IMG/VR virus record: IMGVR_UViG_3300034112_001193 | Span: 1 to 62,375 of that record | Origin: a virus | Taxonomy: Duplodnaviria; Caudoviricetes | Length of the DNA stretch: 62,375 nt | Reading direction: 5' to 3' (one strand) | Part shown: one piece after another, positions 1,207 to 39,322 of the stretch | How positions within the stretch are numbered: position 1 is the first letter of the stretch | Layout of the letters: each line of letters starts with the position of its first letter | Notes under the pieces: model-generated | Told to the model about the DNA's origin: nothing | The model's database searches: none | Seen by the model: the letters and a program-made list of their open reading frames with translations, nothing else | Position numbers and translations under genes: made by a program

Positions 1207-1209
1207 GGG

Positions 1210-1280
1210 TTGCAGGAGAGGGAATCGAACCCTCAACTTCAGGTTATGGGCCTGACGAGATACCGTTTCTCTATCCTGCG
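1210..1280 (-). tRNA. tRNA-Met(CAT), initiator-like
   Basis: Cloverleaf: acceptor CGCAGGA/TCCTGCA with C1:A72 mismatch, D arm GAGA/TCTC, anticodon arm TCAGG-CCCATAA-CCTGA, T arm GAGGG-TTCGATT-CCCTC; CCA not encoded. Confidence 0.85.
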
Positions 1281-1444: not shown

Positions 1445-4400
1445 TTACTTTTTCTTTTTACCAGATTTCTCGACCTGTTGCAAAAGTGCATTCTGCATTC
1501 CTACTGCTGTGTCATAGTCAGTAGCGTAAATGTCGGTGCGGGGTGTGTATTGCCCTTCAAAATTTGGATCAAGCACCATCATCACAACATCAGGTTCTCC
1601 TTCATTAAATTCTTGGAATGTTTGTTTATTCCATCCTTCAGGCGAAAACTCATCGTTCCAAGGAATTCTTGACGCTTCAACAAATCCATGCTCTCCATAA
1701 AGCCTCGGAAGAATTGTATCAAAAGCATCTAATTTTTTTCCTCCAGCCGAAATTGCCGCTTCCAATATACTTCTACTGCTACCCTTTTCCATGCTGAAAA
1801 CAGAAACAATGTCTCCGTCAGGTTTAACAGCAAATCCAGATTTTCCAGATTCTGACATGAATAATTTCATGCCTTGGTAATCTTCGACTGGATATACATT
1901 AACTGCCGCACCAAATTTTGCCTCATCCTTGCTTTGTTGAAGAGTATCTGCAAATTTCTGTGCTGATGGTTTGTCAGTCGAGTCAAGTTCTAAAAATCTA
2001 ACAACTGGCAGTTCATTATTCCTGAACATGGTTGCCAGTTTTCTCCCCGGCTTCCATTCGGAAATATATTTTATTCCAAGATTCTTTTTAGATTTAGGTT
2101 TTAAAACCCGTAACTCTCCACCATCTCCATCGCTTTTTCTCGCGTAAGTCCAGAGTGCCTTTGCATTGCCCACTCGATTGCGTCTTGCTGTTGAGGCGGC
2201 GACATAGTGCTTGAACTTTTGTTTTTCTTTTGAGTCAGTAAACCCTCCAGCACTTTCCTGCTCCCCGGATTGATCTCCACCCCGTCCTTCAGTTGTAGAT
2301 CGTGTAGTTGTTGTGCGGTCATTTTTTACTTTTTCTATTGCTTGTTGAATTCGTTTTTCAGAAACGCCTTTTTTACGAGCAACTCCGATTGCGGCATTGG
2401 CGTAATCTGGGGCTTCCTCGTCCTCATAGCCCTCGGCATCTGATTCGTCAAGATTTTCCTGATCGTCCTTTACCTTGGCAGTCTCATAAAGACGCTTTTC
2501 AGCATACCACAGAACTGCCTGCAAGTCTGCCATAGTTAACCCCGCATATTTCGGATCGGACTTCAAATCATCCAACATCAATCCAAAAATTTCTCGTATG
2601 AAATTTCGTTCAGCAGGACTTGCCGGGGCTTCCTTCTGACCATCGAGGTATTTTGCAAGACCATTCCCGGACTTCCTTAATTCCTCCCCGGTTTCAGTCT
2701 TGTTCATCACCTCGCGCAATTCAGGTTTCATCGACGCCTTTTGAATTGCGGTCGCCAACTCCTCGACGCTCATCTCCGAAATGTCTCTACCAAGCATTTC
2801 ATCGAATCGCGCCATATCATCATCAGTCAGTTTATTGACTGCTTCCATCGTTCTGGTTGCCGCTTGCTCGGTCAGTTCCGGGTTTAATTCAATCAATGTC
2901 CCGGTCCACCTTCCCCAAGTGCGGATCAACCATCGATCCATCGTCAACGCATCGAACAAACCATAGAGGTTGCTGAAGAATCCATTTCCAATCTTGGGTC
3001 CAAGAATCGATGATCCGCGAACAAGTGTGTCAGCGTATTCGCCTCCCGGTTTAACATCTTTTTTGCTTGCCTTGTTGACAACTCCAAGCCGCGAGATTTC
3101 TTGAACCGTAAATTCGGTCTGCATGAATTTACGAGTATTATCGATGCCCCACTCATTTGTTAACTGGTTAAATAATCCAAGACTCTGGTTAATGGCTTTC
3201 TGTGCTTGTCCAGCCTGAATGTTGGTAGGCATTTTCCCGGTTTTGCGGTATGCCCGATAAACTCCTTCCGCCAATTCAAAATTCTTATCGACCTTGAGTC
3301 CGTTAGATGTAACTGCCAATGCCCATGTGAATGCGAATCGCGCATTCTCGTCTGTGGCGATTTCAGGGAAAAGAAGCGACATGACTTCAAGTGCCTGCTT
3401 GGTCTTCTCATCATACCATCCGATTGCATTTGGATTTTGTTCTAATGCAATCAAAGCGTCTTTCAAACCGACACGGGACAGATATTCGATTGTCTCCAGA
3501 GTTCGTTCAGAAACTTTGACTCCAGCTTTTTCCGCCGCTTCAAGGACTCGTTGTTGAATATCTAATTTGAAGTCCCGGCCTTTTTTCCAAGGTTTGCTGT
3601 TAGCTACCCGGATAGCATTGGATATCACCGATTGCTCATCCACGAACTCTGGAACTTCAATTCCAGTTGATACCAATTCTTTGTCAGAAACTTCTTCCTC
3701 TGGTTCAACTTTAGCTACTGGTATTTCCTGTGGTTTTTGAACAACTGTTTCTTTTGGCTTTTCAGGTTGCACAACCGGAGTGCCTCCCTGCAACGCCTGC
3801 TTCAGAATTGCCATCTCGCCGCCTTGAGCGTTAAATATAATCTCTGGCAAATTTGATTCTGGAGGCATTGCTTGAGATGCAGGAATAGGAGGTTCCACAT
3901 CGCGCAAAGGCGGGATCATGTCGCTGATCCTGCGGTATTGCGTAGGCAGTTCGATGCCTTGCAAGCCTTCTGGTTCTGCGCCTTGTTCAGCAGGCATGAA
4001 ACGAATGTCAGGAGAAGTTGTCTGGAACCTCTGCGATAGGGGTATCAGATTGCCTGCATCGTCGTATGTGAATGGGTCTGCGGATTTTGCTTGTTGAGGA
4101 TTAAATATTACATATGAAGTTGATCCTTCATCTTCAAATTCATTTTTATATTTTAAACCATCGTATCCTTCTTCTTTTGATTTTATAATAATATCATTCC
4201 AGTTATCACCTTGATCTTTAACTGTTTTCAAGTTATTAAAAAACAAATATGTTTTTGTCAAATTACCAAGATCATTATAATCATAATCTTGATACATCCA
4301 CATTTCTGCTATTGCGTTATTGGCATCCTTTTCTGCTGATTGTTTTGTAGAAAAACCATCTAAACTTTCGTTTGTATTTGTTTTCCAATACCACAATCCG

Positions 4401-7400
4401 TTTTCTTCAAAAATCTCTAACGATCTGCGTTCGTCTTCCGGTTGTTTGTCGAATGCCCTTTGTATAGACGCTTCTTTTGATCCAAAATGCATTCCTTTTT
4501 TTGTTTTGGGAATAGGATCATAAGAAGGATCAAATGATCCAAAATGCCACGCTTCAATGCCCCCTGCATTTTTTGCAATATTTTCAACAATAGCGATTGC
4601 CTCCGCTTCAGCTTTCTTGTCACCTGCTTTGGCTTTTGCTTCAAGGTCTGCAAAGCGAGTGTCAACTTCCGCAGGCATGAATTGAATCTGTCCTGCGCTA
4701 ACAACATTTGCCATCTCTGGCGTGATGTTTACTCGCCAGATTGGTGCAGTTTTTTCACGAACATTAATAATTTCAGGAACTGCATTTGGAGTTCTGGTAA
4801 ATTGAGTAAATGTGCTTGGTTTTTCTATAACGATTTCTGACTTCTCAACCTTGCCGCCCATCTTGGCAACATACTTGCCGATCTCTTTTGGCAGGATCGT
4901 GTCGTAAAAGCCTTTCATGCCTTCGCCGCCAACTGTGAGGTCTGCGTTTTCGATGGTCACATACGGCCCATACTTCGGATCGTGGGTTTTCGATTTGTCG
5001 GCAATCTTTTGAGCCACCTCTTTTCCAACATACTCTTCAAGTCCATCAAGCGGCACAGTCTTGTCTAAAACTTTTTCACTACTGTCTTTCTTGTATGCCA
5101 GCAAACGCTGCGACTTGGGATCGTATTGGATCATGTCGATCTGCTTGCTCAAATCATAGCGTTCTGCCTGCGTCTCTCCAGTAGTCCAACCAATCCATTG
5201 CTTGCCAGACTCCACGGCATCACGCAATACTCGCTTGAAGAGTTGAACAGACCAATCTTTGCGGAATGGTGCGTCTGGGACTTTTCCAACAACTGAAGAT
5301 GATTCTCTTTTAAATGCATATTCAATTGCTGATTCAGCAGAATTTCCTGCCATCCCATCTGTTACAAGATTACCTTCAGCATCAAATACTGACCATGTTA
5401 AATTCGATCCAGCTTTCCCAGTTTGTTTTGCTGTCCATCCCTTGGGCGATGTTAAATACCCCTTCTCCCTACCCGCCTGATGCCGATCAGACTGCAACTC
5501 TTCGATGAACAATCCATCGTTGCCTTCAGCGTCTGTGCGGTCATTCAAGCGCATATGCGCTACATAGTTTGGAATGTCGGAGAAGTGGGAGGAGGTATAA
5601 ACATCCTTATTAACCTCGCTAGACTTATTTTCCGCCGCCCTAGAGAAATCACTCCATTCTGCATATAATTCTGGGTGATTTTCTTCTGCCCATCGCACTT
5701 GATACAACGGATTAGTTCCTGTTGGGAAATCTGGCAATTGCTCAATTTTGCTCCAAGATTGATCTCTTAACTGAATGGCTTTTTGCTTTGATATGCCTTT
5801 TCCAATCGGCATTGCCATCACAACTTCACGATAGTTTTCACCACCGGGGAGGACATAGCCTGCGAATTTTGTTGTTCCTGCTTCTTCCAATTCACGATAG
5901 TCAGAAATTACTTCTTTCACCAAATCAATAATGCCTCCGTTTCGTCCAGTATAAATGTTTTCTTCTCGTGATGCCGCTTGAACAACTCGATCAGCTTCAG
6001 CAGAATTATATCCATTTGAAATCAATACTTGCCGCAGTCTTTCTGCCGATCTTGGAGCAGTCATTCTATCTAATCCACCAAGTGTCACCTCTTCAAATTT
6101 AACCTGCCCCTCATCTCGCAGATAATTCAGCAATTCTTGCACGGGAACTTTGCCGTTGTTCTCGCCTGCAATCCTGTCGATTGCGTCATTAACTCCTGAC
6201 CACTTAACTTCTTCCGCTTTGACATTCTGCGGGTTGTTAATGACTGCCTTCAACTGCTCTGGCGTTGCCGTAGCACCTCGGAACTTCCTCTGGATTTCTA
6301 ACTGCAATTTGCTCTGGAATCCTCGTTCTCCTGATGGTGCTTCTATGGTTTCAGCAGGCATGAATTGCGTTGCTGGAATTTCAAGTTCGCTTTCACCGGG
6401 AAGGAAGTTTATTATTGCTTTTCCATAATCAACCGGAAGTTTAGGAAGATCACTTGCATCTAATAATTCAGCCATGTGATCGATTCGCATAGACATAATC
6501 GTCCTGTCCATGCTTTTATTTTTCTCGTCACCTTTTCTTTTCGGAATCTTTGTGCGATCAAGATTTAATGCTTCTGTTTCATTCTTAAACAGATTCAGAA
6601 AATCATTAAATATCGATTTCTTTTGCTCTGCTATAGCAACATCTTCGCTTAATTGATTGCGTCCTACTGGTTCACCTTGTTCATTATATCCACTACCTTG
6701 AATACCTTTAGACCAGTTATCTAAATATTTTGTAGAAAACTCGCTCCAGAATGCTTCTTTGCTTCCACCCCAAGGTGATAGTCGATTTGGCATACGATCT
6801 GACCAAGCATTCAGTTTCGACATCATTCGACCAACTGAAATCGTTGTCACAAGAAAATTGCCTGCTGAAGATAAGTGCAATCCAATTGGAACGACATCGT
6901 AAATCTTTGGAGAAAATGCTTTATAATTTCCTTTGTCATCCATGACTGCCGCATAATCGACAAAGAATCGCGATCCATCTTTTTTGACAATCGCATCGTT
7001 TAACTCCAGCAGATACTTTTTAATTTTGAGAGGCACAATACCCTCTGGCAATTCTTGAATCGCTTTAATCTGAAGCGGGGTAAATGTTCCTCGATATGTA
7101 TTGGAACCTTCAGAAACTGCCTCAAATCGCCCCGGCGTTCCATAGTCAGGAGTGTCGATTGCCTGTTTGAATAGTGTTGCTCGATCTTTCGCGATTTTCT
7201 TCAGGTCGGAGGGCTTGAGAAGTTTAGGTGTAATGCCGTCCGCCTCGGTAACAATCTTTTTGGAGATAGCCAGAGTTCCGCCTTCTGGAACTTGCAATTG
7301 ACGCAATTCAACAGGGATTTGCCCATAACCATTTAATCTTTCCTCGCCATCTTTAGTAATGCGCCAAGTGCCTTCAAAGACCGTAGGATCGGTTACATCA

Positions 7401-10400
7401 ACTGAAGTTCCTACAGGGTTGCCATCTGCGTCGAATACTTGCGCCTGAACTTTTGTTGCGAATAGACCAGAGTCCATGCCGTAGCGTTCTGCCGCGATCT
7501 TGCTTTTACGAATATCGGCTTTCGAGATAGTTGCCGTCTCTGGTTTGTTTTCAATCGTTGCAAAATCTCCATTCAAACTTTCCAGCAACCGCATAGCATT
7601 GCGAGCGGCACTTTGAACTTCAGGAGGCAGATTGGCTTTCGATGCGTAACCAACAACATCACCAGAATAACCCAATCCAAGCAACTTCGTCGTAGCTTTT
7701 TTGAGTAGGTTATTTTTAAGTTTTGCCCTTGCCACATCAAGCAAGTGAATGCTTTTTGGATCGATATTCCTACCAAGATTTCGCGAAAGCGTGTTAGAGA
7801 ACAGATCTGCAAGAATTTCTTCTTGCATATACTCTGACACATTCTTTCTGCTTAACGAATTTGTTCCGTAGTCCCAAAGTCCACTTGCTTTCGCAATAGC
7901 TTCGATCTGCTTTTTATTGTAATTCTTCAGGTATGTATTTTCGTAAAGATCGATCAATTGATCTTCATTGTAGAGTCCAGTTGTGACTTCTTTGACATTG
8001 CCTTCCGCATCGCGAATTTGATTACTGAATAACAATTTCCTTGCTTCAGAAACCGCATCTTGGATTTCTTTAATTCGCAAGATTGCGTGACCTGTTTCGT
8101 GATTTAAGGCATCAATTGGAGTCTCTCCGTAGATGTCAATTCGATTGCGAAGAGCATCCGAATTAATAACAATCGAAGGTTGCGCTTGATTGAATACAAT
8201 ATTCTTGACGGCATCGCTAACTTCCATGCCGGGTCGAAATTCGTTTTGACCAGTTCCAGAATAAAATCCCTGTTGTCTTGCAATTTCGTAAATCGTCTCG
8301 TCAGGCACATCGCGCAATGCAGGATTCTGTCTGAAATGATTGAAGATTTGATCGGTGCTTAAAATGTGAATGCCAACATTGTTTTGACCCGCTTTAAGCG
8401 CACCATTCAGCAAAAGATTATTTCGACCAAGTGCTGTTAGAAACTGCCTGCCAAATTCGTTTCGAGTCTGAACATTTGCCGTTTTGAGCAACGACAAGGA
8501 TTTCTTCTCTGCCTCTAGTCTTTTTTCTGCCTCCTCAATTTTTTTGTTGTCAGGTGACTCGTTTACCAGTCTTTGAACTTCAGCCTCGGTATCTGCTACC
8601 TTCTTTGCCTGTCTGCCGATCACCAATTCCCAATCGGTTAACTTGTCAATCTCACCTCGCGTTTCAGGCGTCGAGTCGCGATATGCCTTTAAAGCATCCA
8701 CATTGGCTTGCTTTGCCCTTCTAGCGGCAATGACAGGGTCTTCGCCAACAAATTTGTGATAACTCTGCTGGACTGCCCTTCCGCCCAAAGAAAAGACTAA
8801 TCCCTGACCAATCATTGTTTTCAGTTCTTCCTCATCCGAAGAATCAATGACTCCTGTAGCAAGAGCAATGAGTGTCGGTTCTACGCCAAGTCGCGCATAT
8901 TCTCCAATATTGGCAATTGCGTCATCATTTACAAAACGCAATATTGTTTTTGTTGTGTCACTAACTTTCCCAATGCCTTCGTAATCTACAATTCCCTCAC
9001 CCTTTGTTTTTTCTTTTGCTAAATCCAACGCTTTTTTAGTTTCTACATACTCGTCAGTTCCTTCTGCAAGAGTCTTTAATTTTGCTGTTAATGTTTTTAC
9101 TTCGTCTTGTTGTTTTGCAATAGCACCCAAGGTTGCAAGTGGACCGACACTACCTCCAGCAGATATCCTTCGTGCGGCTTGCACTTCTTTTACTACTTTC
9201 GGTAAATCAATTAATGCTTTTACTCCATACTTTGCTCCTATCCCGCTAAAAGCACCCATTCCTAATCCAGCCAACGGATTTTCAGGATTTACTTGATATC
9301 CAATAGTTGCTCCAGTAACAGCAGGCGCAGTTTTTGTAATTGTTTGCCATGTCGGACTTCTTTCAAGGTAATCACTAGTTTTTTCAATTCCCCTTGCCGT
9401 TGCTCCTGCCGCTCGCTCGACAAATCCGGGTTTCTGTAATTTTTCTAGTTTAGAAAGTTCTTTTTTCTTTGCTACTTCTTGAGCTTTTGTTTCCAAAGCA
9501 TTGATTTGGTCATCATCCAAACCAAGTTTTTTTAATTTTAATTTTGCAATCGGAGTCAGCATCTTTGACGCTTGAACAACAGAGTAAGCGTAACCAAAAA
9601 CATCTACACCAAATTGGCCGGGAATTGTTAATGATCCAAATGTAGCAATGTCGGGATCGTTTTCTGGAATAGATTTTTTAATATCTTCGATTGTATTAAG
9701 AACCCCGTTTTCGATATCTGCTTGCCGTTTTGATTTAACCTCCTCTCGGCTTAAATCAGGATACATAATCATGTATTCATCGATTGACGGGTGTATCAGG
9801 CTTGAAAATGATTTCATCACAGGAGCGTAGTATGTATCAACTACTCGCGCCCAAGATTTAGGTTCTGATTTAATCAATTTTGCTTGAGCAGTATTAACTT
9901 CGCTTCTTGCTTTAAATCTTTCAAAAGAAGTTTCTTCATCGGTCAGACCAAACTTTTCACTAGCATCGTCCCATAATTGCATTCCCCCAGTTCCAAGTTT
10001 TGTTCCCAAAAAAGCTACGCTTTCAGGCAACGATGCTAGTTCAGAAGTGTAGGAAAACGGAACTTGTTTTGCTTGATATCGCTTTTCTTGAAATTCTTTT
10101 TCAATGCCAGCGATTTGCTCTGGAGTCAGGTATTCTTTGATTTTAGCAAGATACTTTGCGTCAGTATAAGCGTCAGGATTTTGTTTTTCGCCACCTTTGA
10201 TTGGAGTATTAGCAATCTGCCATGCTCGTTTGCGCCAACTTTCAACTTCTGCCTTCTTATCTTCAGGCAATAATTTTTCTGCCGCAAGTGCTTTAGCATA
10301 CCCTGAAGTCATCCCAAGTAATGCAGGAGCACCTTGCTTTACTGCTTTTGCAGTTCCCTTTAATACACCACCCAAAAGGTCTGCTGTCATTACTCCAACT

Positions 10401-10903
10401 CCAGCTAAATCTTCAGATGCCGCCGCACCTAAATTATACCATTCTTCCCAATTTGTAGGAATCTTGCCATACGGAGAAGATTTTCTTAACTCGCGTTGAT
10501 AATTAAATATCTGACGCTTTTGATCATCATCTAAAAATACATCAGGTCTGCTTTTGATGAATTCATTTAAATCTTCGGCATCTAAAGATTTAATTAAATC
10601 TCTATCTGCTGGCGTAAATTCTTCTTCATCTTTATCACCAATTACTGAAAGAACAATATTGCTCGGCTTTGAAAGATCAATCTCTGGTTCTTTTACTGGA
10701 GTAGGAGCGGGTAAAGCAGATGGAACTGCTTTTGGCAGTTCTTCTTTTGGCTTTTCTTCAGCAGGTTGAAAAGATAAGACAGATTCTATTTCGCTAATTA
10801 ATTCATCTGTTTCATCTTTAACTTCAAGTTCTTCAGTTTGAGGTTCCTCTTTATTTCCAAGAACATTATCAATATCCTTGATAAGATCATCAATTTCAGC
10901 CAT
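1445..10903 (-). CDS. Giant (3152 aa) polyvalent/ejected virion protein: HExxH peptidase-like motif, ExQSD nuclease-like module, ART-PolyVal-like ADP-ribosyltransferase, HhH-glycosylase-like and C-terminal GNAT-like domains
   Basis: Motifs NHETGH (~8087-8104); SHF..PNYVAHMRLNDR...LFIEELQSD (~5490-5590); WHFGS..GMHFGS..GYDGLKY..SYVIFNPQQAKSA (~4080-4550); GWY..LAVTS..GPKIG..LTMDRW..QAVLW (~2500-3420); GFAVKPDGDIVSVF..LDAFD..LYGEHGF (~1560-1860). Last gene of the ejection block. Confidence 0.8.
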   Translation of the reverse strand: MAEIDDLIKDIDNVLGNKEEPQTEELEVKDETDELISEIESVLSFQPAEEKPKEELPKAVPSALPAPTPVKEPEIDLSKPSNIVLSVIGDKDEEEFTPADRDLIKSLDAEDLNEFIKSRPDVFLDDDQKRQIFNYQRELRKSSPYGKIPTNWEEWYNLGAAASEDLAGVGVMTADLLGGVLKGTAKAVKQGAPALLGMTSGYAKALAAEKLLPEDKKAEVESWRKRAWQIANTPIKGGEKQNPDAYTDAKYLAKIKEYLTPEQIAGIEKEFQEKRYQAKQVPFSYTSELASLPESVAFLGTKLGTGGMQLWDDASEKFGLTDEETSFERFKARSEVNTAQAKLIKSEPKSWARVVDTYYAPVMKSFSSLIHPSIDEYMIMYPDLSREEVKSKRQADIENGVLNTIEDIKKSIPENDPDIATFGSLTIPGQFGVDVFGYAYSVVQASKMLTPIAKLKLKKLGLDDDQINALETKAQEVAKKKELSKLEKLQKPGFVERAAGATARGIEKTSDYLERSPTWQTITKTAPAVTGATIGYQVNPENPLAGLGMGAFSGIGAKYGVKALIDLPKVVKEVQAARRISAGGSVGPLATLGAIAKQQDEVKTLTAKLKTLAEGTDEYVETKKALDLAKEKTKGEGIVDYEGIGKVSDTTKTILRFVNDDAIANIGEYARLGVEPTLIALATGVIDSSDEEELKTMIGQGLVFSLGGRAVQQSYHKFVGEDPVIAARRAKQANVDALKAYRDSTPETRGEIDKLTDWELVIGRQAKKVADTEAEVQRLVNESPDNKKIEEAEKRLEAEKKSLSLLKTANVQTRNEFGRQFLTALGRNNLLLNGALKAGQNNVGIHILSTDQIFNHFRQNPALRDVPDETIYEIARQQGFYSGTGQNEFRPGMEVSDAVKNIVFNQAQPSIVINSDALRNRIDIYGETPIDALNHETGHAILRIKEIQDAVSEARKLLFSNQIRDAEGNVKEVTTGLYNEDQLIDLYENTYLKNYNKKQIEAIAKASGLWDYGTNSLSRKNVSEYMQEEILADLFSNTLSRNLGRNIDPKSIHLLDVARAKLKNNLLKKATTKLLGLGYSGDVVGYASKANLPPEVQSAARNAMRLLESLNGDFATIENKPETATISKADIRKSKIAAERYGMDSGLFATKVQAQVFDADGNPVGTSVDVTDPTVFEGTWRITKDGEERLNGYGQIPVELRQLQVPEGGTLAISKKIVTEADGITPKLLKPSDLKKIAKDRATLFKQAIDTPDYGTPGRFEAVSEGSNTYRGTFTPLQIKAIQELPEGIVPLKIKKYLLELNDAIVKKDGSRFFVDYAAVMDDKGNYKAFSPKIYDVVPIGLHLSSAGNFLVTTISVGRMMSKLNAWSDRMPNRLSPWGGSKEAFWSEFSTKYLDNWSKGIQGSGYNEQGEPVGRNQLSEDVAIAEQKKSIFNDFLNLFKNETEALNLDRTKIPKRKGDEKNKSMDRTIMSMRIDHMAELLDASDLPKLPVDYGKAIINFLPGESELEIPATQFMPAETIEAPSGERGFQSKLQLEIQRKFRGATATPEQLKAVINNPQNVKAEEVKWSGVNDAIDRIAGENNGKVPVQELLNYLRDEGQVKFEEVTLGGLDRMTAPRSAERLRQVLISNGYNSAEADRVVQAASREENIYTGRNGGIIDLVKEVISDYRELEEAGTTKFAGYVLPGGENYREVVMAMPIGKGISKQKAIQLRDQSWSKIEQLPDFPTGTNPLYQVRWAEENHPELYAEWSDFSRAAENKSSEVNKDVYTSSHFSDIPNYVAHMRLNDRTDAEGNDGLFIEELQSDRHQAGREKGYLTSPKGWTAKQTGKAGSNLTWSVFDAEGNLVTDGMAGNSAESAIEYAFKRESSSVVGKVPDAPFRKDWSVQLFKRVLRDAVESGKQWIGWTTGETQAERYDLSKQIDMIQYDPKSQRLLAYKKDSSEKVLDKTVPLDGLEEYVGKEVAQKIADKSKTHDPKYGPYVTIENADLTVGGEGMKGFYDTILPKEIGKYVAKMGGKVEKSEIVIEKPSTFTQFTRTPNAVPEIINVREKTAPIWRVNITPEMANVVSAGQIQFMPAEVDTRFADLEAKAKAGDKKAEAEAIAIVENIAKNAGGIEAWHFGSFDPSYDPIPKTKKGMHFGSKEASIQRAFDKQPEDERRSLEIFEENGLWYWKTNTNESLDGFSTKQSAEKDANNAIAEMWMYQDYDYNDLGNLTKTYLFFNNLKTVKDQGDNWNDIIIKSKEEGYDGLKYKNEFEDEGSTSYVIFNPQQAKSADPFTYDDAGNLIPLSQRFQTTSPDIRFMPAEQGAEPEGLQGIELPTQYRRISDMIPPLRDVEPPIPASQAMPPESNLPEIIFNAQGGEMAILKQALQGGTPVVQPEKPKETVVQKPQEIPVAKVEPEEEVSDKELVSTGIEVPEFVDEQSVISNAIRVANSKPWKKGRDFKLDIQQRVLEAAEKAGVKVSERTLETIEYLSRVGLKDALIALEQNPNAIGWYDEKTKQALEVMSLLFPEIATDENARFAFTWALAVTSNGLKVDKNFELAEGVYRAYRKTGKMPTNIQAGQAQKAINQSLGLFNQLTNEWGIDNTRKFMQTEFTVQEISRLGVVNKASKKDVKPGGEYADTLVRGSSILGPKIGNGFFSNLYGLFDALTMDRWLIRTWGRWTGTLIELNPELTEQAATRTMEAVNKLTDDDMARFDEMLGRDISEMSVEELATAIQKASMKPELREVMNKTETGEELRKSGNGLAKYLDGQKEAPASPAERNFIREIFGLMLDDLKSDPKYAGLTMADLQAVLWYAEKRLYETAKVKDDQENLDESDAEGYEDEEAPDYANAAIGVARKKGVSEKRIQQAIEKVKNDRTTTTRSTTEGRGGDQSGEQESAGGFTDSKEKQKFKHYVAASTARRNRVGNAKALWTYARKSDGDGGELRVLKPKSKKNLGIKYISEWKPGRKLATMFRNNELPVVRFLELDSTDKPSAQKFADTLQQSKDEAKFGAAVNVYPVEDYQGMKLFMSESGKSGFAVKPDGDIVSVFSMEKGSSRSILEAAISAGGKKLDAFDTILPRLYGEHGFVEASRIPWNDEFSPEGWNKQTFQEFNEGEPDVVMMVLDPNFEGQYTPRTDIYATDYDTAVGMQNALLQQVEKSGKKKK

Positions 10904-10909
10904 TACTTT

Positions 10910-12589
10910 TTATTTTTTTTGAGTTGCGCGAAGTTGCTCAACTAGAACCTTTAATTCTTTTTTCAATTGTTCTTTTTCTTCACCTTCTGGCATCTCTTTC
11001 ATTTGCATAAATTTTTGCTTTGTTAAATTTGCTAGATTTTCTGATTCAGGAACTTCTTCTAAAATATTAAAATCAACTATAATTCTTTTTGGCTCAAGAC
11101 CATATTGCTTTGCTAAACCTGAATAAGAATCTTTTAATTGATTGTATTCTCCTAATCTAGATTCATATTGTTTTTTAGCTTGATTCAAAAAGTCTTTTCT
11201 TTGAGTTTCAGATAAGATTTGACCATCAATAGCTTTGTTAAATGTCGCTCGTATTCTATCTGGAATTCCAGCCGCATTTTGAGCATTTGCATATTCGCCC
11301 TCTCTAACTGTAGAGGCTGGGTCTAACAATTTCATATACCCAAAAATTAAAGACATATCACCTGCGGCGGAAGGTTCTTTTCCAGATGTTTTAATGCTTC
11401 TCCATGCGCTTTGGATTGTTTTAAAATCTTTTGTTTGACCGATATATTCGTCTCGCAATTTTCTTTCAGTATCAAAATCAACCCCTGTTCCTTTTTTTTC
11501 TTCAGCAAGTTCTTTATCGGTTTTTCTTTCTGGGAAAATAACCTTGAATCCAGTTTCTCCTTTTTTGGTTTTTATCTGTTCTATTTTCGCTTCGTTATAT
11601 TCAGGACCAAATATTTTAGATATTTCTTTAACTGCTTTTCGAGCAACATTGACATCCGCCCAAGTTTTAAAATATCGATTTAAATCTACCTCTTCAGCTT
11701 TTTGTTCTGTTGGAACTTGTTGTGCTTCTGGTTTAGGAAGAATAGATAATGCACCAAATCCAGTTGGCAGTTCTCCTGTAGCAGAATAAAATTCTTCTTG
11801 TAACTTTCTCGCTTCTTCAGGAGAAACAAGTGATTTATTTTTACTTAAAATGTTAAACGATGCAGGCTTTTCAGGTGCTTGAATATCTGTAGACATAGTT
11901 TGTCCAACAGGAGTAAGATTGCCTGCCAGCATATTTTCTAATTCCGTAGCTTTATTTTCAGCATTTACAGTTAATTCTGAAAGCGGTCTATTTAAAACAT
12001 TTTGAGCTTCTTGCTGTGTTGGAACTGATGAAAATAAAGGATTAAATACCTCTTCGGTTTCTGGTGGTAATCCTAAATCCCAAATTTCATTTTTAGGCAA
12101 ATCTTCTTCTACAGGGGTTAAAGTTGATTTTGTTGAATCTTGTTCATCAATATCTCCGTATGTAATTTCTTCTTCATTGCTCTTACCTTCTTCTTTTTGT
12201 TTTTCCAATTGATTTTGCAAAATTTGCAAACGAGTTTTTTTATAGTCTTCGTCTGTAGTATCTTGCGATCTGATTTTTGCTAATGCAATTGCCCTATCAT
12301 GTTCTCGTTGTTCTTTAGCCAATGCTTCCTTCTTTTCCCTCTCGCCAACAAATGCGGCGGTGATGCCTTGCAACGCTCCACCTACTCCCTCTTTCAATCC
12401 AGACGCAATTCCGCCAGTCACTAGTTCCGGTTGTTCAGACCGAATTTTAAGTGGTTCAAAAGTTGCAAAGGCTAGAGGTGTGTGTCGAACTTCAGGAACT
12501 GCAACCTGAACAGGTCGCATTCCTTCCAAGGGTGACGCTGACCGGATAGTTGCGAACTGTGGTGAAAACGAATAGGCGGGTGCTGGCAT
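10910..12589 (-). CDS. Putative ejection/internal virion (DNA transfer) protein
   Basis: 559 aa; contains AGDMSLIFGYMKLLDPASTVREGEY, a motif common in podovirus ejection proteins; N-terminal Gly-rich amphipathic segment. Confidence 0.65.
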   Translation of the reverse strand: MPAPAYSFSPQFATIRSASPLEGMRPVQVAVPEVRHTPLAFATFEPLKIRSEQPELVTGGIASGLKEGVGGALQGITAAFVGEREKKEALAKEQREHDRAIALAKIRSQDTTDEDYKKTRLQILQNQLEKQKEEGKSNEEEITYGDIDEQDSTKSTLTPVEEDLPKNEIWDLGLPPETEEVFNPLFSSVPTQQEAQNVLNRPLSELTVNAENKATELENMLAGNLTPVGQTMSTDIQAPEKPASFNILSKNKSLVSPEEARKLQEEFYSATGELPTGFGALSILPKPEAQQVPTEQKAEEVDLNRYFKTWADVNVARKAVKEISKIFGPEYNEAKIEQIKTKKGETGFKVIFPERKTDKELAEEKKGTGVDFDTERKLRDEYIGQTKDFKTIQSAWRSIKTSGKEPSAAGDMSLIFGYMKLLDPASTVREGEYANAQNAAGIPDRIRATFNKAIDGQILSETQRKDFLNQAKKQYESRLGEYNQLKDSYSGLAKQYGLEPKRIIVDFNILEEVPESENLANLTKQKFMQMKEMPEGEEKEQLKKELKVLVEQLRATQKK

Positions 12590-13158
12590 TACATTCCTCC
12601 GAATTGAAGACCTTGTGCTGTAGGCAGGTTGAATCGATTGGTATTTTGTTGGGTTCCGCCAGTCCCAGCGTTTGAAGCCAAAACTTGCGGTATGCCCATC
12701 TGCGAGGCATTAGGCGCATTTGTCGAAGCAGGTCCAGCAGTTCCCCCAGCGGCGGCTATTTTCTGCTGTTGAGCCGATCCCATATTGTAACCGCTCCCGC
12801 CAGCAATTGTGTTTTGATAATTTTTCGAGGCTTGCTCGTCTAACCTCTTTTGATTTTCAGCCGCACGGGTGAAATCGCTTTGCAGGCGAGATTCTGACTC
12901 CCGGCGCATCGATGCCGCACGGTCATTCTCGGCTTGAATCTGGCGTTGCTTTTCGCGTTCCGCCGCTTCTTTGGCAAGACGATCCCGTTCTGCTTGTGCC
13001 GCTTTAGCGGCGGCATCTGCGGCTTTTCGAGCAGCATCCATTTGGGCTTGCATGGCGGCTTGCTGTTGCGCCATTTGCTTTGCCATTTGATCGTTTCCAT
13101 CACCGCCACTATTACTGCTAGAACTGCTTTTCTTTTTACTGCCTCCTCGTCCTCCCAT
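12589..13158 (-). CDS. MGG-start, FGGM-end low-complexity coiled-coil virion protein
   Basis: MGGRGGS...; Q/A-rich coiled coil; ends NRFNLPTAQGLQFGGM. Confidence 0.7.
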   Translation of the reverse strand: MGGRGGSKKKSSSSSNSGGDGNDQMAKQMAQQQAAMQAQMDAARKAADAAAKAAQAERDRLAKEAAEREKQRQIQAENDRAASMRRESESRLQSDFTRAAENQKRLDEQASKNYQNTIAGGSGYNMGSAQQQKIAAAGGTAGPASTNAPNASQMGIPQVLASNAGTGGTQQNTNRFNLPTAQGLQFGGM

Positions 13159-13160
13159 AA

Positions 13161-13691
13161 TTATGTTCCTCCAAATTGTAAGCCAGTTGTTTTCGGCATT
13201 GCAAAAACATTGGATTGTTGTGGTCTATTTGCTTCAGTTGAAGGCAATGTTCCTGACATTGCACCAAGATCGACGAGTGCTTTTTGACGGGCGGCATTGA
13301 TGTTGTATGCACCCGCACCAGTTGCTTGCGCTCCAGCCGCCATCGACGCTTGACGCTCCTGTTCGGCTTTTGTTTGATCCGCCAATTGTTGCGCGGAAGA
13401 TTTCGCGGCCAATTCCTGTTGCGCCTTCGATTCCTCTTGCCTGCGGAGTTGTTGTGCGGCTACATTTTGCGCTTCAATCGCCGCTTGCCGTTGCTGTTCT
13501 TCAATGCGTTGACGCTCCGCAATGGCATCCAATCGTGCTTGTTCAGCCTGTTGTTGCTGAAGTCGCATCATCTCTGCCTGTTGCGCCATTTGCTGATTAA
13601 ACATCGCTTGTTGCATTTGCATCTCTTGCGAGCGCATTTGCTGTTCAGCTTGAACTTGGGACTTCGATGGTCCGCTTGGTCCTCCACCCAT
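13161..13691 (-). CDS. MGG-start, FGGT-end low-complexity coiled-coil virion protein
   Basis: MGGGPSG...; Q/A-rich; ends NVFAMPKTTGLQFGGT; apparent paralog of 12589-13158. Confidence 0.7.
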   Translation of the reverse strand: MGGGPSGPSKSQVQAEQQMRSQEMQMQQAMFNQQMAQQAEMMRLQQQQAEQARLDAIAERQRIEEQQRQAAIEAQNVAAQQLRRQEESKAQQELAAKSSAQQLADQTKAEQERQASMAAGAQATGAGAYNINAARQKALVDLGAMSGTLPSTEANRPQQSNVFAMPKTTGLQFGGT

Positions 13692-13717
13692 AATTATTTT
13701 TCTTTCTTTTTTAGTTG

Positions 13718-14281
13718 TTAAGTTCCACCGAATTTAATGTTAGACATATCGGGGAGATTGAATTGATTGGATGCAACATACTTTTGTTGGGTGCTTGCAG
13801 GTTTGTACATGAATTCAACAGGCAAATCCGCACTAGCACTTGTATCACTAATTTTTGATTGTGCAATGGAAGGAGTTGCTGTTGTTGAAGCAACTGTTGC
13901 AACTTGTGAACTTTCAGCAGGAATAGAACTTGGAGGAAGCGTGGGTGCGCCTGCTCTTAACGCTTCATTGCTAGCCTGCCTTCGCGCCAAATCAGATGCC
14001 GATTGCGCCTTCATGCTTGAAAGCATTTGATTTTGAGCGGAAAACATTCCAGATGTATCCATTTTAGAACGAGGCATAGAATATGGAGTGCTTCCGCCGC
14101 CGCCAAATTTCCATTGGAGTTTCCCAAAGTTGCGATCAAATTGGAAAGGTTTTTTGCCTGTAATCATGCTGGTTGGCAGAACCCCCATAGGGTCCATAAT
14201 ATTCAAAGGATCAACAACCTTGTTGACCGATCTCCAGAACTTTCCGCCACCACCAAAACCTTTTTTAATGCTTCCTCCCAT
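13718..14281 (-). CDS. MGG-start, FGGT-end low-complexity virion protein
   Basis: MGGSIKKG...; ends NQFNLPDMSNIKFGGT. Confidence 0.7.
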   Translation of the reverse strand: MGGSIKKGFGGGGKFWRSVNKVVDPLNIMDPMGVLPTSMITGKKPFQFDRNFGKLQWKFGGGGSTPYSMPRSKMDTSGMFSAQNQMLSSMKAQSASDLARRQASNEALRAGAPTLPPSSIPAESSQVATVASTTATPSIAQSKISDTSASADLPVEFMYKPASTQQKYVASNQFNLPDMSNIKFGGT

Positions 14282-14283
14282 AA

Positions 14284-14562
14284 TTATAATCCTATTTTTG
14301 CTCTAGCCTCTAAACAAAGTGTCGAGCCGGGGTTAAATAATCTACACGCTTGCGGTCTGCAATTATAAACAGAACACTTAACTGCAACTCCAACTTCTCC
14401 TTCTAAAGCAATGCATCTATTGTTTTCGGTCTTCATTAAAGGGTAATCGGTTCGTTGCATTTCAAGCGGAATGCCAGTTGCGTCTGAACGATCCCGTTTG
14501 AGGATCGGCCATGACCACTTAAAACAACAACACGCTCCGCATTTTTCGCAATCATAGTTCAC
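14284..14562 (-). CDS. YkgJ-family cysteine-cluster (Fe-S/Zn) protein
   Basis: CEKCGACC...RCIALEG.VG..V.CSVY..RP..CR.F.PGS..C..AR pattern. Confidence 0.85.
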   Translation of the reverse strand: MNYDCEKCGACCCFKWSWPILKRDRSDATGIPLEMQRTDYPLMKTENNRCIALEGEVGVAVKCSVYNCRPQACRLFNPGSTLCLEARAKIGL

Positions 14563-14981
14563 TTTCTGCCATACATTGTTCCAACCGCTCCAAGAATGCC
14601 GCCAGCGAGGTCTTTGCCAGCGTTGCCATACGCTTGGGCAATTTGTCCTCTGCCATCGTCCCGAATTTGAAATGGCATCATGGGCATGAAATTCAATGCA
14701 TCAGGGTTCTCTTGTAACATTTTTTGCATCTCAAGCCATTTTTGATATGCTTCTGCTTGCGATTGACTTTCCTTTGCTTTTGACATTTCATTAGTGCTGA
14801 AATCAATGCCCTGAATGCCTTTTGCAAAAAAGTCCAACCCTTGCGCCAATCGTTTGCTTTGCGCCTGCTGACGATCAAATGCGGCGAGGTCTGCTTGCGT
14901 TGCCAATGTAGCTTTGGGGACTGTCCCGGCGGCAAGTTGCGTTTGACCGATTTTGTTGGTTCCTGTATTTGCTCCACCCAT
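14559..14981 (-). CDS. MGG-start virion/ejection protein with C-terminal Gly-rich hydrophobic segment
   Basis: Start MGGANTG at 14981, directly after the PP-loop gene stop; ends GKDLAGGILGAVGTMYGRK. Confidence 0.65.
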   Translation of the reverse strand: MGGANTGTNKIGQTQLAAGTVPKATLATQADLAAFDRQQAQSKRLAQGLDFFAKGIQGIDFSTNEMSKAKESQSQAEAYQKWLEMQKMLQENPDALNFMPMMPFQIRDDGRGQIAQAYGNAGKDLAGGILGAVGTMYGRK

Positions 14982-14982
14982 A

Positions 14983-15822
14983 TTATTTTTCCTCCTTGTT
15001 CCATTCCACCGGACGAAATCCAAGGTCGGGAATGACGATGTCTTCGTAGGGTGCTAAATGTGAAATGTTGCTGATTTGAGCGTTGAGTTTCGGGCAATGC
15101 ACATGACTGCCTTGATGACGATCCACGCAATTTAAACAGGTAGGGTAGAAGTCGGCATTCAAAGACTTGTCAGGGTTGTTGCCCCACTTGTCAGTTTTGA
15201 CATAACGAGTCGGATCGGGTTCGACCCCGGCATCTTCTAGATACTGGAAAATATCAGCATCAGTCCAATCGCGCATTGGGTATAGACTAACAGGACTGCC
15301 CTCGGCGTAACGAATGTCCTGCGCCAATGGCACATGACCTTTAATCAAGTCGGTATCACTTCCCTTGGTTCCAATCCAGACCGCACCCCAAGGCCAATTA
15401 AATGTGCCTGTGGGTCGATTCAAAAAGTCATCCAAACCGCACATGAATTTCTCGCCCTCTTTGGGACGCTCCGTTCCTAACGAAAGCACAACTGCTTTGG
15501 TTCCCCATTGGAAGTAGTGCAGAAGGTCAAAACGCACTTCACCTGTTTCCACATCAGGACCATCCGCCAATGCATACCTGCTGGCGGGATACTCAAAAAC
15601 GGTCAAATCCCACTCTTTAATCAATCGATCAGAATAAGCGTAGCGTTCGCGAAATTTAGGTTGGCGAAACTGAATTACAGGGATATCGATTTCGGCTTTG
15701 AAGCGCAACAAATGAAGCATTGCCGTGGAGTCCTTGCCGCCGCTCCACAACACAACAGAACGAGGCCAATTTTTAGCCCACAACTGTGCTTTTTTCACAG
15801 TTTCTGTAATCAGTTTTGTCAT
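14983..15822 (-). CDS. PAPS-reductase-family PP-loop ATPase
   Basis: VVLWSGGKDS PP-loop, IGTKGSD, YPMRDWTDADIFQYL, C-terminal TCLNC...CPK; lacks the ECG(L/I)H tail of true CysH. Confidence 0.85.
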   Translation of the reverse strand: MTKLITETVKKAQLWAKNWPRSVVLWSGGKDSTAMLHLLRFKAEIDIPVIQFRQPKFRERYAYSDRLIKEWDLTVFEYPASRYALADGPDVETGEVRFDLLHYFQWGTKAVVLSLGTERPKEGEKFMCGLDDFLNRPTGTFNWPWGAVWIGTKGSDTDLIKGHVPLAQDIRYAEGSPVSLYPMRDWTDADIFQYLEDAGVEPDPTRYVKTDKWGNNPDKSLNADFYPTCLNCVDRHQGSHVHCPKLNAQISNISHLAPYEDIVIPDLGFRPVEWNKEEK

Positions 15823-16733
15823 ATAATAATTGCCGCCGCTCCAATGCCTGCTCCTGCAAGCCCTGCTCCCGCGCCAATCAATTGACCTGTCATTGCATTT
15901 TTGGATGCCGCCGCCTGACTCGCCGCATCGTACAAGGATTGCTCGTAAGACTGACGATTTGCTTGATTGGTTTGCTGGAGATTTAAAATCTCACCCATGT
16001 TACGAGAGAGATAATCGAATGCGTTTTGATTAAGTCCCATTCGGGCTTGCTGGAACTGATTTAATGTCTGCCCTAGTTGCCCTGCGCCTTGCAAGATGCC
16101 TCTTTGCCAGTCCGACATTGCTCCTAGATTTCCCGCCTCGCTAGCCTGCCTTGCCGCCATTAAGGTTCCGGGATCGATGCCGCCAACGGGTGCTTCTTGC
16201 GATTGCACGAACCCTCGCCGCAATGCAATGTCTTCTAAAATCCGTTTGCGTCCCTCGTCGGTAGAAACATCTGCCAACATGGAGCGTCCAAATGTACTGG
16301 AAGGATCGACGCCAGTTCCACCAACTGCACTAATGCCTTTTTGCTTCAGCCATGCATCCATGTAGTTTTTGAATGCCTCACCAGAGGTGGCAGATTCGAT
16401 TTGCTCCGGGAGTTGCAACCGCATACGAGCAGTCGCGGGGGAGGTCATTTGCTCAAATTGACGGGATCGAGCGAGATTAGAAAGGCCCAATTCGGCAGCT
16501 TGCCGGGAAGTCTGCTCTGCATCGAATGTCGTTTGCAGAGGTTGCATTTTGGTATACAGGTCGAGCATTGCTCGGTCTGTTTGCAACGCTCCAGCTTGAG
16601 CGGCGGCAAGATCGGCGGATGCTGTCTCTAAACCAACTTGACCCATTGCCTGCTTTGCAGACAAAATCTGTCCCGGCGTTTGATAGTCGGGCCTACTCAT
16701 GTATCTGCCGGGGTTTACTGTTGCTCCTCCCAT
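15819..16733 (-). CDS. MGG-start ejection protein with C-terminal glycine-zipper-like hydrophobic tail
   Basis: MGGATVN...; Q/A-rich helical; ends GQLIGAGAGLAGAGIGAAAIII; located after the nozzle and GNAT-like genes as in podoviruses. Confidence 0.65.
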   Translation of the reverse strand: MGGATVNPGRYMSRPDYQTPGQILSAKQAMGQVGLETASADLAAAQAGALQTDRAMLDLYTKMQPLQTTFDAEQTSRQAAELGLSNLARSRQFEQMTSPATARMRLQLPEQIESATSGEAFKNYMDAWLKQKGISAVGGTGVDPSSTFGRSMLADVSTDEGRKRILEDIALRRGFVQSQEAPVGGIDPGTLMAARQASEAGNLGAMSDWQRGILQGAGQLGQTLNQFQQARMGLNQNAFDYLSRNMGEILNLQQTNQANRQSYEQSLYDAASQAAASKNAMTGQLIGAGAGLAGAGIGAAAIII

Positions 16734-16737
16734 AATT

Positions 16738-17127
16738 TTATTCCTTTGGTTTTATGTGAAAAATTTCACGATGCATTCTTTCAAGACCTAATTTTTCCAT
16801 TATTTCATTTGTGAAAGTAAAGCGTTCTGACTGCAATGGGACTCCAACATATCCCGGTCCTCCGGTAAGTTGGTTGTAAACTCGCCAGTCATGCATGGTC
16901 TGGATTACATCGCGAGGGGTTGTATACTTGGGGTGAAAAGCAGGGTAAATTGTTGGGATAAAAACATGATCTGAATAACCAACCAGTTTCCCGTCTTTAT
17001 AATGACCGTAGACATTAATTTGTGGATGATCGATAATGTGATGGTCAAAATCTTCCGCGAAGTCTACTAATTCAAGGAATTCAGCAGAGTCTTTAGGAAT
17101 TAATTTATAATCAATAGTTGATCTCAT
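16738..17127 (-). CDS. GNAT-like acyltransferase-fold protein
   Basis: 129 aa; KDGKLVGY hairpin and IMEKLGLER (cf. the GNAT 'EKLGF' motif); same position as podovirus GNAT-like genes between nozzle and ejection genes. Confidence 0.5.
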   Translation of the reverse strand: MRSTIDYKLIPKDSAEFLELVDFAEDFDHHIIDHPQINVYGHYKDGKLVGYSDHVFIPTIYPAFHPKYTTPRDVIQTMHDWRVYNQLTGGPGYVGVPLQSERFTFTNEIMEKLGLERMHREIFHIKPKE

Positions 17128-17135
17128 TTATTTAT

Positions 17136-17387
17136 TTAGTTAAACCCAACAAATACCTCGTCAGGAACGGGTCCAGTTTTGAATCCAATGTATTTTGAAG
17201 CAATTTCGTCCAGCACATTTTGTTGCTCATTGTAATTCCCGCACAGAGCGCAAGGCAAGCAATTATTTTGGTTTTTTTCAAAAGGGATGGAAGAATAAAC
17301 AGGAGTTAGAAATTCGTCAGCAAACGGAGATATAAACTTGTTCGGAAAGTTCTTCAATCTAATTTTTGATTTAGCAATGCTAGGCAT
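17136..17387 (-). CDS. Hypothetical protein (CLPCALC motif)
   Basis: 83-aa ORF tightly packed in the tail module. Confidence 0.6.
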   Translation of the reverse strand: MPSIAKSKIRLKNFPNKFISPFADEFLTPVYSSIPFEKNQNNCLPCALCGNYNEQQNVLDEIASKYIGFKTGPVPDEVFVGFN

Positions 17388-39135: not shown

Positions 39136-39160
39136 ATATAAAATAAAAGTTTTTAGGTTG

Positions 39161-39233
39161 TGCCCCCGGAGGGATTTGAACCCCCAACCAAGTCGTTATG
39201 AGCAACCTGCTCTGACCATTGAGCTACAGGGGC
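39161..39233 (-). tRNA. tRNA with CAT anticodon, probably tRNA-Ile2 (lysidine-type, reads AUA)
   Basis: GCCCCTG..GCTCAATGGTCAGAGC A GGTTG-CTCATAA-CGACT..GGGGG-TTCAAAT-CCCTC CGGGGGC A; C4-G69/C5-G68 as in TilS substrates; resembles E. coli ileX. Confidence 0.8.
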
Positions 39234-39239
39234 TGGAAT

Positions 39240-39322
39240 TTGCGCGGATGGGACTTGAACCCATACGGAGTTGCCTCCACCGGATTTTAAGTCCGGTGCG
39301 TCTGCCATTTCGCCACCGCGCA
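39240..39322 (-). tRNA. tRNA-Leu(TAA)
   Basis: Acceptor TGCGCGG/CCGCGCA, anticodon arm CCGGA-CTTAAAA-TCCGG, long variable arm GGAG-GCAA-CTCC, T arm ATGGG-TTCAAGT-CCCAT. Confidence 0.9.

Follow-up and report, generated by a model that had tools for sequence, protein, structure and literature searches.

The subject of this analysis is a block of genes in the IMG/VR virus record IMGVR_UViG_3300034112_001193, a genome of 62,375 bp that looks complete (99%) and that is called here, at its full length, the window. By gene order and homology, the block is the internal-virion, or ejection-protein, module of an uncultured podovirus-type phage. Five of its proteins begin with Met-Gly-Gly (MGG). The main finding is that this start is strongly selected at the protein level and not at the DNA level, as its codons indicate, and that among distant relatives it goes with a small protein encoded upstream, not with the PP-loop enzyme encoded in the same block. 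In the present phage, the small protein is predicted to have the fold of GNAT acetyltransferases. We tentatively favour a reading in which the GNAT-fold protein recognises, and probably acylates, the N-terminal glycine of the ejection proteins, while the PP-loop protein is a separate maturation enzyme that uses ATP and is tied to the module's first ejection protein; we would put the probability of this reading somewhat short of even.

The eight genes named in an earlier, sequence-only reading of this DNA were recovered in the order and at the positions it had given, all on the minus strand, and are described here in the direction of transcription. The first encodes a protein of 129 aa, p129 (16738..17127). 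It is followed by MGG-A (304 aa, 15819..16733), by a PP-loop ATP-pyrophosphatase-type enzyme of the PAPS_reduct superfamily (279 aa, with the motif SGGKDS, 14983..15822), by MGG-B, a small ejection-module protein (140 aa, 14559..14981), and by a YkgJ-type CxxCxxCC metal-cluster protein with a GTG start (92 aa, 14284..14562). Three further MGG proteins come next: MGG-C (187 aa, C-terminus ..IKFGGT, 13718..14281), MGG-D (176 aa, Gln/Ala-rich, C-terminus ..LQFGGT, 13161..13691) and MGG-E (189 aa, also Gln/Ala-rich, C-terminus ..LQFGGM, 12589..13158). The genes are as tightly spaced as had been claimed, the largest gap being 26 nt, between MGG-C and MGG-D; an ATGA overlap joins MGG-A and the PP-loop gene, and a GTGA overlap joins MGG-B and the YkgJ gene. 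The start of MGG-B is the ATG at 14981, behind AGGAGG, the longest open reading frame (ORF) beginning at a TTG farther upstream. Two larger genes follow, one for p559, an ejection protein of 559 aa with a P22 gp20-type C-terminal domain (10910..12589), and one for a giant protein of 3152 aa (1445..10903).

That these genes form an ejection-protein operon, as had been proposed, is borne out by the gp20-type match of p559 and by a gene order of the P22 type. p559 matched phrog_13634 (E 3.7e-42), and tblastn matched it to Kapi1, SEN22, Mx8, the Pseudanabaena phage Pam1, the Microcystis phage MJing1 and the Roseobacter phage CRP-901, with E values of 1e-8 to 2e-7 against Lederbergvirus genes and of 3e-27 against Mx8, over 18-34% of the query. 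Its similarity to gp20-type 'DNA transfer proteins' is restricted to the C-terminal domain. The gene order in P22 and Kapi1 is gp14 > gp7 > gp20 > gp16. In the part of PMC4819975 (Hardies et al.) that deals with it, the podoviral module is described as internal virion proteins (IVP) A to D; T7 IVP-A and its counterparts are stated there to match acetyltransferases, and an IVP-A homologue to precede P22 gp7 (IVP-B). On this scheme, p129 occupies position IVP-A, as T7 gp13 and P22 gp14 do, MGG-A is an IVP-B-type ejection protein (an analogue of P22 gp7 and T7 gp14), p559 is in the IVP-C position, and the giant protein occupies position IVP-D, like P22 gp16 and Bcep22 gp75. The assignment of MGG-A is positional: it is the first ejection protein, belongs to the class of about 200-300 aa, and ends in a hydrophobic, Gly/Ala-rich C-terminal segment, with position and tail as in P22 gp7. 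It had no match to P22_gp7 (PF25688) and no Pfam hit above noise, and its BLASTP comparison with P22 gp7 gave E 0.91.

The five Met-Gly-Gly starts are present as claimed, and they are not a matter of chance, given that both strands of the genome together hold nine copies of the word ATGGGNGG, five of which are the five MGG gene starts. One part of the earlier description needs correction, namely that most of the MGG proteins are otherwise dissimilar: MGG-C, MGG-D and MGG-E have a common C-terminal motif, F.[LM]P....[LI].FGGx, whose [FL]GGx ending is kept in 68 of the 69 C/D/E-type proteins of relatives. For MGG-C, where FGGT lies 34 nt before the next ATG, this ending as a by-product of the ribosome site of the following gene was ruled out.

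Conservation of the start was assessed on a close set of 101 loci, with 65 unique PP-loop gene sequences, 39 of them in complete blocks. The gene order is kept across all 101 loci. In the 39 unique complete blocks, 130 of the 147 non-enzyme genes start with MGG, with between two and five of them in each block; the remaining genes start MKRP, MNRP, MADI and similar, and MGG-B is missing from part of the clade. Among 239 unique MGG proteins, Gly2 is encoded by GGT in 113, GGA in 82, GGC in 41 and GGG in 3, and Gly3 by GGA in 181, GGC in 33, GGT in 22 and GGG in 3. Residue 4 is S in 74 of these proteins, A in 45 and G in 39, and the positions beyond it vary. Since both glycine codons change synonymously, the selection acts on the protein rather than on the DNA, and by this measure the Met-Gly-Gly start is strongly selected. 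The same synonymous variation, together with normal AGGA/GGAG sites upstream of the genes, rules out ATGGGAGG as a Shine-Dalgarno-like word placed after the start. With selection of this strength at the protein level, a recognition or modification of the N-terminus may reasonably be inferred. N-myristoyltransferases use substrates of the pattern MGxxxS/T; this pattern is not maintained among the 239 proteins.

Which gene the start follows could be asked in more distant phages, using 80 loci around PP-loop homologues of about 35-45% mutual identity, which gave 59 unique lineages with enough upstream sequence. In 37 of these lineages, at least one of the two genes before the PP-loop gene starts with MGG, against a background of 1 of 231 other ORFs of at least 100 aa. 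In three further lineages (loci L117, at about 5049, L122, at about 5086, and L124, at about 5090), ATC GGA GGA replaces ATG GGA GGA at the IVP-B-type start, a replacement which suggests that ATC serves as start codon or that the start has been lost. A small upstream protein is encoded in 39 of 40 MGG lineages: p129 in five of them and, in 34, another protein, p115. The latter was also found in three of four lineages with an MG-x start, while among the 15 lineages with other N-termini only one had p115 or p129. The PP-loop protein, for its part, is present in all 59 lineages, whether the start is MGG or not, with S[GF]GKDS, four Cys, K153, D156, R206 and Y207 kept; in 15 of the 59, the protein encoded upstream of an intact PP-loop gene starts MA, MP, MS or ML. 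In its distribution among these genomes, then, the MGG start goes with the small upstream protein (p129 or p115) and not with the PP-loop enzyme. The loci L138 and L146 illustrate this. Their PP-loop proteins are nearly identical; L138 has an MSRR start and no small protein, L146 an MGGS start and p115, a difference that suggests cassette exchange inside the ejection module. None of seven cultured phages that encode a gp20-type protein, and whose displayed stretch lacks a PP-loop gene, has an MGG start in the IVP-B position.

The identification of the 129-aa protein as GNAT-like was confirmed at the level of the predicted fold. For the AlphaFold2 model of p129 (predicted local distance difference test, pLDDT, 82.6), the top Foldseek matches in the PDB were GCN5, PCAF, SpeG, RimL, Naa50 and other GNAT acetyltransferases (E <= 0.005, template-modelling score, TM, 0.5-0.63), and those in BFVD were GNATs of small size from phages, among them a T7-like 'host specificity protein A'; with every top match in both databases a GNAT, the model can be placed in this fold. 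Its neighbours in the ESM atlas bear Acetyltransf_1. An alignment of 21 sequences, down to 51% identity, has 36 invariant residues, including H29, H42, S52, D53, H65 and D73. The p129 gene is small, lies immediately before that of the first ejection protein and encodes an acetyltransferase-like fold, and so corresponds to IVP-A as defined in PMC4819975; it is the ordinary IVP-A slot of podoviral ejection modules rather than a special addition. A sequence relationship with P22 gp14 was unsupported, the hhalign comparison with Kapi1 gp14 giving E 0.16, and the DUF2824 model (PF11039, P22 gp14) had no match in the window. Small genes also stand before the IVP-B-position genes of Mx8 (p53, annotated as 'potential holin', L104 2593-3000) and MJing1 (118 aa, L189 3089-3445), and by eye the two look IVP-A-positioned.

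Methionine aminopeptidase takes off Met before Gly, and GNAT-fold enzymes include N-terminal acetyltransferases and myristoyltransferases. In the sequence of events that we favour, the host methionine aminopeptidase would bare the Gly-Gly N-terminus of the ejection proteins, and the small upstream protein, with its GNAT fold in this phage, would recognise it in the infected cell. Most likely it would N-acylate this N-terminus; at the least, it would escort the ejection protein into the procapsid. The N-terminal step would ready the ejected proteins to insert into the envelope of the host. A GNAT protein acting on Gly-Gly is preferred here because the MGG start co-occurs with the small upstream protein.

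Several points weigh against this preference. Nothing in the present analysis shows a covalent modification. p129 had no PHROG match and no Pfam family at E values up to 1, and Acetyltransf_1 (PF00583) matched nothing in the whole window at E up to 10. The pyrophosphate of acyl-CoA is bound in GNAT enzymes by a loop with the motif Q/R-x-x-G-x-G/A after strand 4; by eye, no Q/RxxGxG/A loop is seen in p129 after strand 4 and before helix 3, where the stretch reads YPAFHPKYTTPRD and holds no Gly. To our knowledge, neither T7 gp13 nor P22 gp14 has a known catalytic role. For p115, the partner in 34 of the 39 cases, no fold or family could be detected (Pfam, PDB, atlas), and its relationship to p129 was not significant (hhalign E 0.04-0.4). 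The association between the start and the small protein is, moreover, phylogenetically clumped (7 and 8 changes when mapped on the PP-loop tree); that tree gave only five supported independent pairs, and the sign test was not significant (median p 0.25). Because the genes adjoin, the joint change of small protein and MGG start could be the result of linkage or cassette exchange alone. The exact N-terminus is not generally essential for this class of proteins. Finally, the small MGG-B to MGG-E genes flank the PP-loop and YkgJ genes, an arrangement that fits equally well a PP-loop enzyme acting on the glycine.

The absence of GNAT sequence motifs from p129 also speaks for another explanation, in which there is no covalent modification. 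Gly-Gly would be a structural or sorting signal, a flexible and small N-terminus needed for incorporation into the procapsid or for threading through portal and tail, the upstream protein would be a chaperone or assembly factor (a dead GNAT), and the PP-loop and YkgJ proteins would be accessory, or 'moron', enzymes with, for example, a nucleic-acid or cofactor chemistry. PAPS-reductase-like enzymes do take part in DNA modification, as DndC does. Mature P22 gp7 begins Lys-Gly-Gly-Lys-Gly once OpdA of the host has cut off 20 residues, and gp7 and gp20 are guided into the procapsid by their N-terminal parts (PMC8402733); the acetyltransferase and the phosphoadenosine phosphosulfate (PAPS) reductase of Lessieviruses are termed morons, for gene regulation and sulfate reduction, in the pertinent portion of the JC1 paper (PMC9144972). 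This explanation is harder to reconcile with a two-residue identity in 130 of 147 genes followed by free variation, which is tighter than a general need for flexibility, or with enzyme genes that are fixed inside the ejection operon across very divergent phages, unlike morons; the 36 invariant residues of p129 also suggest more than a scaffold. We regard it as rather unlikely.

The PP-loop protein, recognised as such in the earlier reading, matched PAPS_reduct (PF01507) with 31.2 bits and E 2.7e-7 (cut-off 22.5), the Pfam list for this protein consisting solely of PAPS_reduct, Diphthami_syn_2 and DUF7411. Four Cys are invariant in 20 homologues (C128, C229, C232 and C243). The best match of a profile search against the PDB was CysD (1zun, E 6e-10), and the AlphaFold2 model (pLDDT 75.9) had Foldseek matches to CysD, the PAPS domain of FAD synthase, CysH, APS reductases, TilS, NcsA, TtuA and, at rank 25, Cap9. 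Scores for individual NCBIfam families were far lower than their cut-offs, the best being 42 bits against a cut-off of 195: for CysD, 42.2 against 195 (NF003587) and 36.2 against 396.6 bits (TIGR02039); for CysH, 17.4 against 154 bits (NF002537), the protein not being among the matches of TIGR00434 and TIGR02057; TilS was also far under its cut-off. The DndC model (TIGR03183) did not match the protein at E up to 0.1, and no dndA, dndD or dndE was found among the neighbours. These scores rule out CysH, CysD, DndC and TilS. The catalytic Cys of CysH sits in a C-terminal ECG(L/I)H motif; the PP-loop protein ends ...DLGFRPVEWNKEEK, with no ECGxH anywhere, and none is present in the alignment of 20 homologues. 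That a role in sulfate reduction fits poorly, as had been argued, is borne out by these scores and by the missing tail, and on this evidence the protein is no sulfate-assimilation enzyme.

The PP-loop family comprises 609 cluster representatives at E <= 1e-3. Searches for cultured relatives with the block, the PP-loop protein and p709 (blastn and tblastn against 50,697 phage records) gave no match, and neither did two distant PP-loop proteins; a third matched only PAPS reductases of Bacillus phages, at 24% identity. Among 185,579 species genomes, a sole relative was found, with a PP-loop protein 55% identical, on a 76-kb contig of a metagenome-assembled genome labelled Chthoniobacter flavus (L191). 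The gene lies near the contig end, behind a gene for a 672-aa protein with an MAKK start and a Gly/Ala tail, and there is no small protein. The label is a possible lead to a Verrucomicrobiota host for that relative alone, and is not evidence on the host of the present phage. In distant family members, the PP-loop protein is fused to a SET domain (P0150, P0200) or to TPR repeats and a GT9-like glycosyltransferase region (P0213, P0236), and in one (P0189) it is split by an intein with a LAGLIDADG domain. In 12 of the 59 distant lineages (L115-L125, L136, L147), the MGG gene and the PP-loop gene are separated by one for a SET-domain-like protein of 133-142 aa.

Within the reading that we favour, the PP-loop protein would be a second and separable maturation enzyme, not itself part of the virion, whose four Cys probably hold Zn or an Fe-S cluster. 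With ATP, it would adenylate a group on the protein of IVP-B type whose gene always precedes its own. Extended to a large group of uncultured podoviruses, the proposal is that p129 or p115 adds an acyl or other group to the Gly-Gly of injected proteins and that the four-Cys PP-loop enzyme performs a second, ATP-dependent step on these same proteins; in this general form we consider it possible, though doubtful. A position outside the virion is in line with results from a Lessievirus: the part of PMC9144972 that reports mass spectrometry of JC1 virions lists gp64, gp67, gp68 and gp69, and not gp63 (the acetyltransferase) or gp65 (the PAPS reductase). By analogy, the two enzymes appear to be non-virion proteins.

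A different assignment of tasks is that the PP-loop enzyme itself has the N-terminal glycine as its target. It would activate as an adenylate the carboxylate of a small molecule or of a protein C-terminus, the free Gly-Gly amine would attack this adenylate, and YkgJ would supply or hold a metal cluster. A precedent comes from bacterial defence. In the portions of the literature that describe them, the PP-loop enzyme Cap9 of type IV CBASS (an anti-phage signalling system based on cyclic oligonucleotides), a member of the QueC family, conjugates 7-carboxy-7-deazaguanine onto Gly2 of CdnD, whose start is MGGS (N-terminal peptide GGSGGS), and the MGTS motif of QatB is essential. The predominance of S, A or G at residue 4 of the MGG proteins is consistent with such a reaction, and so are the translational coupling of the PP-loop gene to MGG-A through the ATGA overlap, the MGG genes on both of its sides, the presence of Cap9 among the Foldseek matches, and the fusion of the family to domain types that modify proteins, with the SET gene adjacent in one part of the distant lineages. 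The distribution of the start argues in the other direction: catalytic residues and Cys are kept where MGG is absent, in the 15 distant lineages described above and in L191, and in Bcep22 the corresponding place is taken by a gene of the PAPS-reductase type whose predecessor encodes a protein starting MLEN. Furthermore, the family is PAPS_reduct and the protein is not assigned to QueC (PF06508); its likeness to Cap9 is confined to the PP-loop motif, the Cap9 chain matching only residues 20-40 (E 0.65), and no gene for 7-deazaguanine synthesis was seen in the ten further genes scanned. We hold this assignment to be improbable.

The Gly/Ala-rich tail offers a third possibility. The enzyme could mature the C-terminal tail of the IVP-B protein, for instance by activating the C-terminal carboxylate, the MGG start being a separate matter; this would be compatible with the reading that we favour. 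The protein encoded upstream of the PP-loop gene has such a tail in all 59 distant lineages by eye, and in 41 of the 59 by a strict rule (last 25 residues at least 40% Gly/Ala, no charged residue); the tail is also found in the close clade, in L191 and in gp70 of Bcep22. However, P22 gp7, Kapi1 gp7 and a 330-aa protein of MJing1 have a tail of the same kind, and no PP-loop gene is shown in those modules. The tail is therefore a general trait of IVP-B proteins, and its co-occurrence with the enzyme may only mirror gene order. As an account of what the enzyme does, we rate this possibility as low, slightly below an action on the glycine.

For the YkgJ protein, the family call was likewise sound: it matched PF03692 with 36.4 bits and E 8.4e-9 (cut-off 23), and CEKCGACCC is present. 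The gene was found in at least 32 of the 39 close blocks, a lower bound due to ATG-only start calling, and in none of the 80 distant loci, so that it is confined to the close clade. YkgJ may be a clade-specific metal-cluster partner of the PP-loop protein. The sequence-only reading had proposed that the GNAT-like, PP-loop and YkgJ proteins together form a machinery that modifies the ejected proteins, and had set as a test whether the enzymes co-occur with the MGG genes across relatives. Of this, the GNAT fold, the selection on MGG and the plausibility of an N-terminal step remain, and in the close clade the gene order and the MGG starts are kept. What does not hold is a single three-enzyme system: YkgJ is limited to close relatives, and 15 of the 59 distant lineages, together with L191 and Bcep22, have an intact PP-loop gene behind a protein with no Gly start.

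Upstream of p129, a gene for a conserved protein of 83 aa (17136..17387, minus strand) always lies between the gene for a 709-aa structural protein and the GNAT-fold gene. It has a C-x2-C-x2-C-G motif, of which C-L-P-C-x-x-C-G is invariant in its 55 unique orthologues, and it had no match in Pfam, PHROG or NCBIfam. Three tRNA genes were found elsewhere in the window (1208-1280, 39160-39233 and 39240-39322), two with the anticodon CAT and one for tRNA-Leu(TAA); one of the two CAT tRNAs could be of the Ile2 type.

Little is understood of how short-tailed phages ready their ejection proteins for exit from the capsid and for rebuilding themselves as a channel across the host envelope, and neither IVP-A (T7 gp13, P22 gp14) nor the 'PAPS reductase' of Bcep22-like phages has an assigned role. 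The phage group described here, which has no cultured representative, gives an unusually sharp handle: an invariant N-terminus of two residues, on as many as five substrates in a genome, which comes and goes with a small upstream protein. If the proposed reading is true, IVP-A would gain a function across podoviruses, a protein-modification step would enter phage assembly, and the common annotation of these PP-loop genes as sulfur metabolism would be corrected. The extended form of the proposal, if true, would make this the first system to conjugate phage virion proteins at the N-terminus, parallel in function to the penetration proteins of animal viruses, which are myristoylated, and to N-terminal glycine conjugation of the Cap9 type.

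Compared with known systems, the block shares its plan with the podoviral IVP module (T7 gp13-gp16; P22 gp14, gp7, gp20, gp16), in which a small, non-structural, acetyltransferase-like gene likewise precedes IVP-B, followed by IVP-C and IVP-D. The mature N-terminus of P22 gp7 (KGGKG) is rich in Gly-Gly, as in the MGG proteins; in P22 it is made by OpdA cleavage, here by the Met-Gly-Gly start. The modules of the model podoviruses P22 and T7 have no PP-loop or YkgJ gene, unlike that of the present phage. CysH and CysD resemble the PP-loop protein in superfamily fold and PP-loop region; the protein described here differs from them by its C...CxxC...C pattern, its context in an ejection operon and the lack of ECG(L/I)H.

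The cassette of Bcep22-like phages (Lessievirus) has the same order and gene types as found here. The Burkholderia phage Bcep22 is annotated with an acyl-CoA N-acyltransferase (gp69), a virion protein (gp70), a PAPS reductase (gp73), a second virion protein (gp74) and a DarB-like giant (gp75) of several domains, and gp70 has, as here, a Gly/Ala tail. There are also differences: gp70 starts MLEN and has a hydrophobic segment, where MGG is found here; gp73 has a CC...CxxC pattern and is remote from the PP-loop protein of this phage (no tblastn match, 27 bits to the family hidden Markov model); and Bcep22 lacks both a YkgJ gene and the series of small MGG proteins.

Cap9-CdnD and QatC-QatB are similar in that the gene of a PP-loop ATPase adjoins that of a protein with an MGGS- or MGTS-type start. 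In the parts of the published accounts that concern them, these proteins have a conserved disordered N-terminus on which Met removal bares the Gly2 nucleophile. Cap9 and QatC belong to the QueC family and to bacterial defence, whereas the present enzyme is of the PAPS_reduct family and lies in a phage virion module; and although MGG[S/A/G] starts occur here, their distribution is not that of the PP-loop enzyme.

Animal viruses have myristoylated penetration proteins, which insert into membranes as the virus enters. The N-myristoyltransferase and the N-terminal acetyltransferases have the GNAT fold predicted for p129 and act on the residue bared by Met removal; p129 differs from them in being a single domain of 129 aa without sequence motifs and with no acyl donor indicated, and in that MGxxxS/T is not kept in its candidate substrates. 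For phages, nothing comparable is known.

A search of the literature gave, among the matches listed (main texts), no paper that links phosphoadenosine phosphosulfate reductase with podoviral internal virion or ejection proteins. The IVP module with an acetyltransferase-like IVP-A was already known from publications, and the cassette of GNAT and PAPS reductase from the annotation of Lessieviruses. What is new in the present phage and its relatives is an invariant Met-Gly-Gly start, borne by as many as five proteins of the module and tracking a small upstream protein, together with a distinct four-Cys PP-loop family, the addition of YkgJ, and fusions to SET and to TPR-glycosyltransferase regions.

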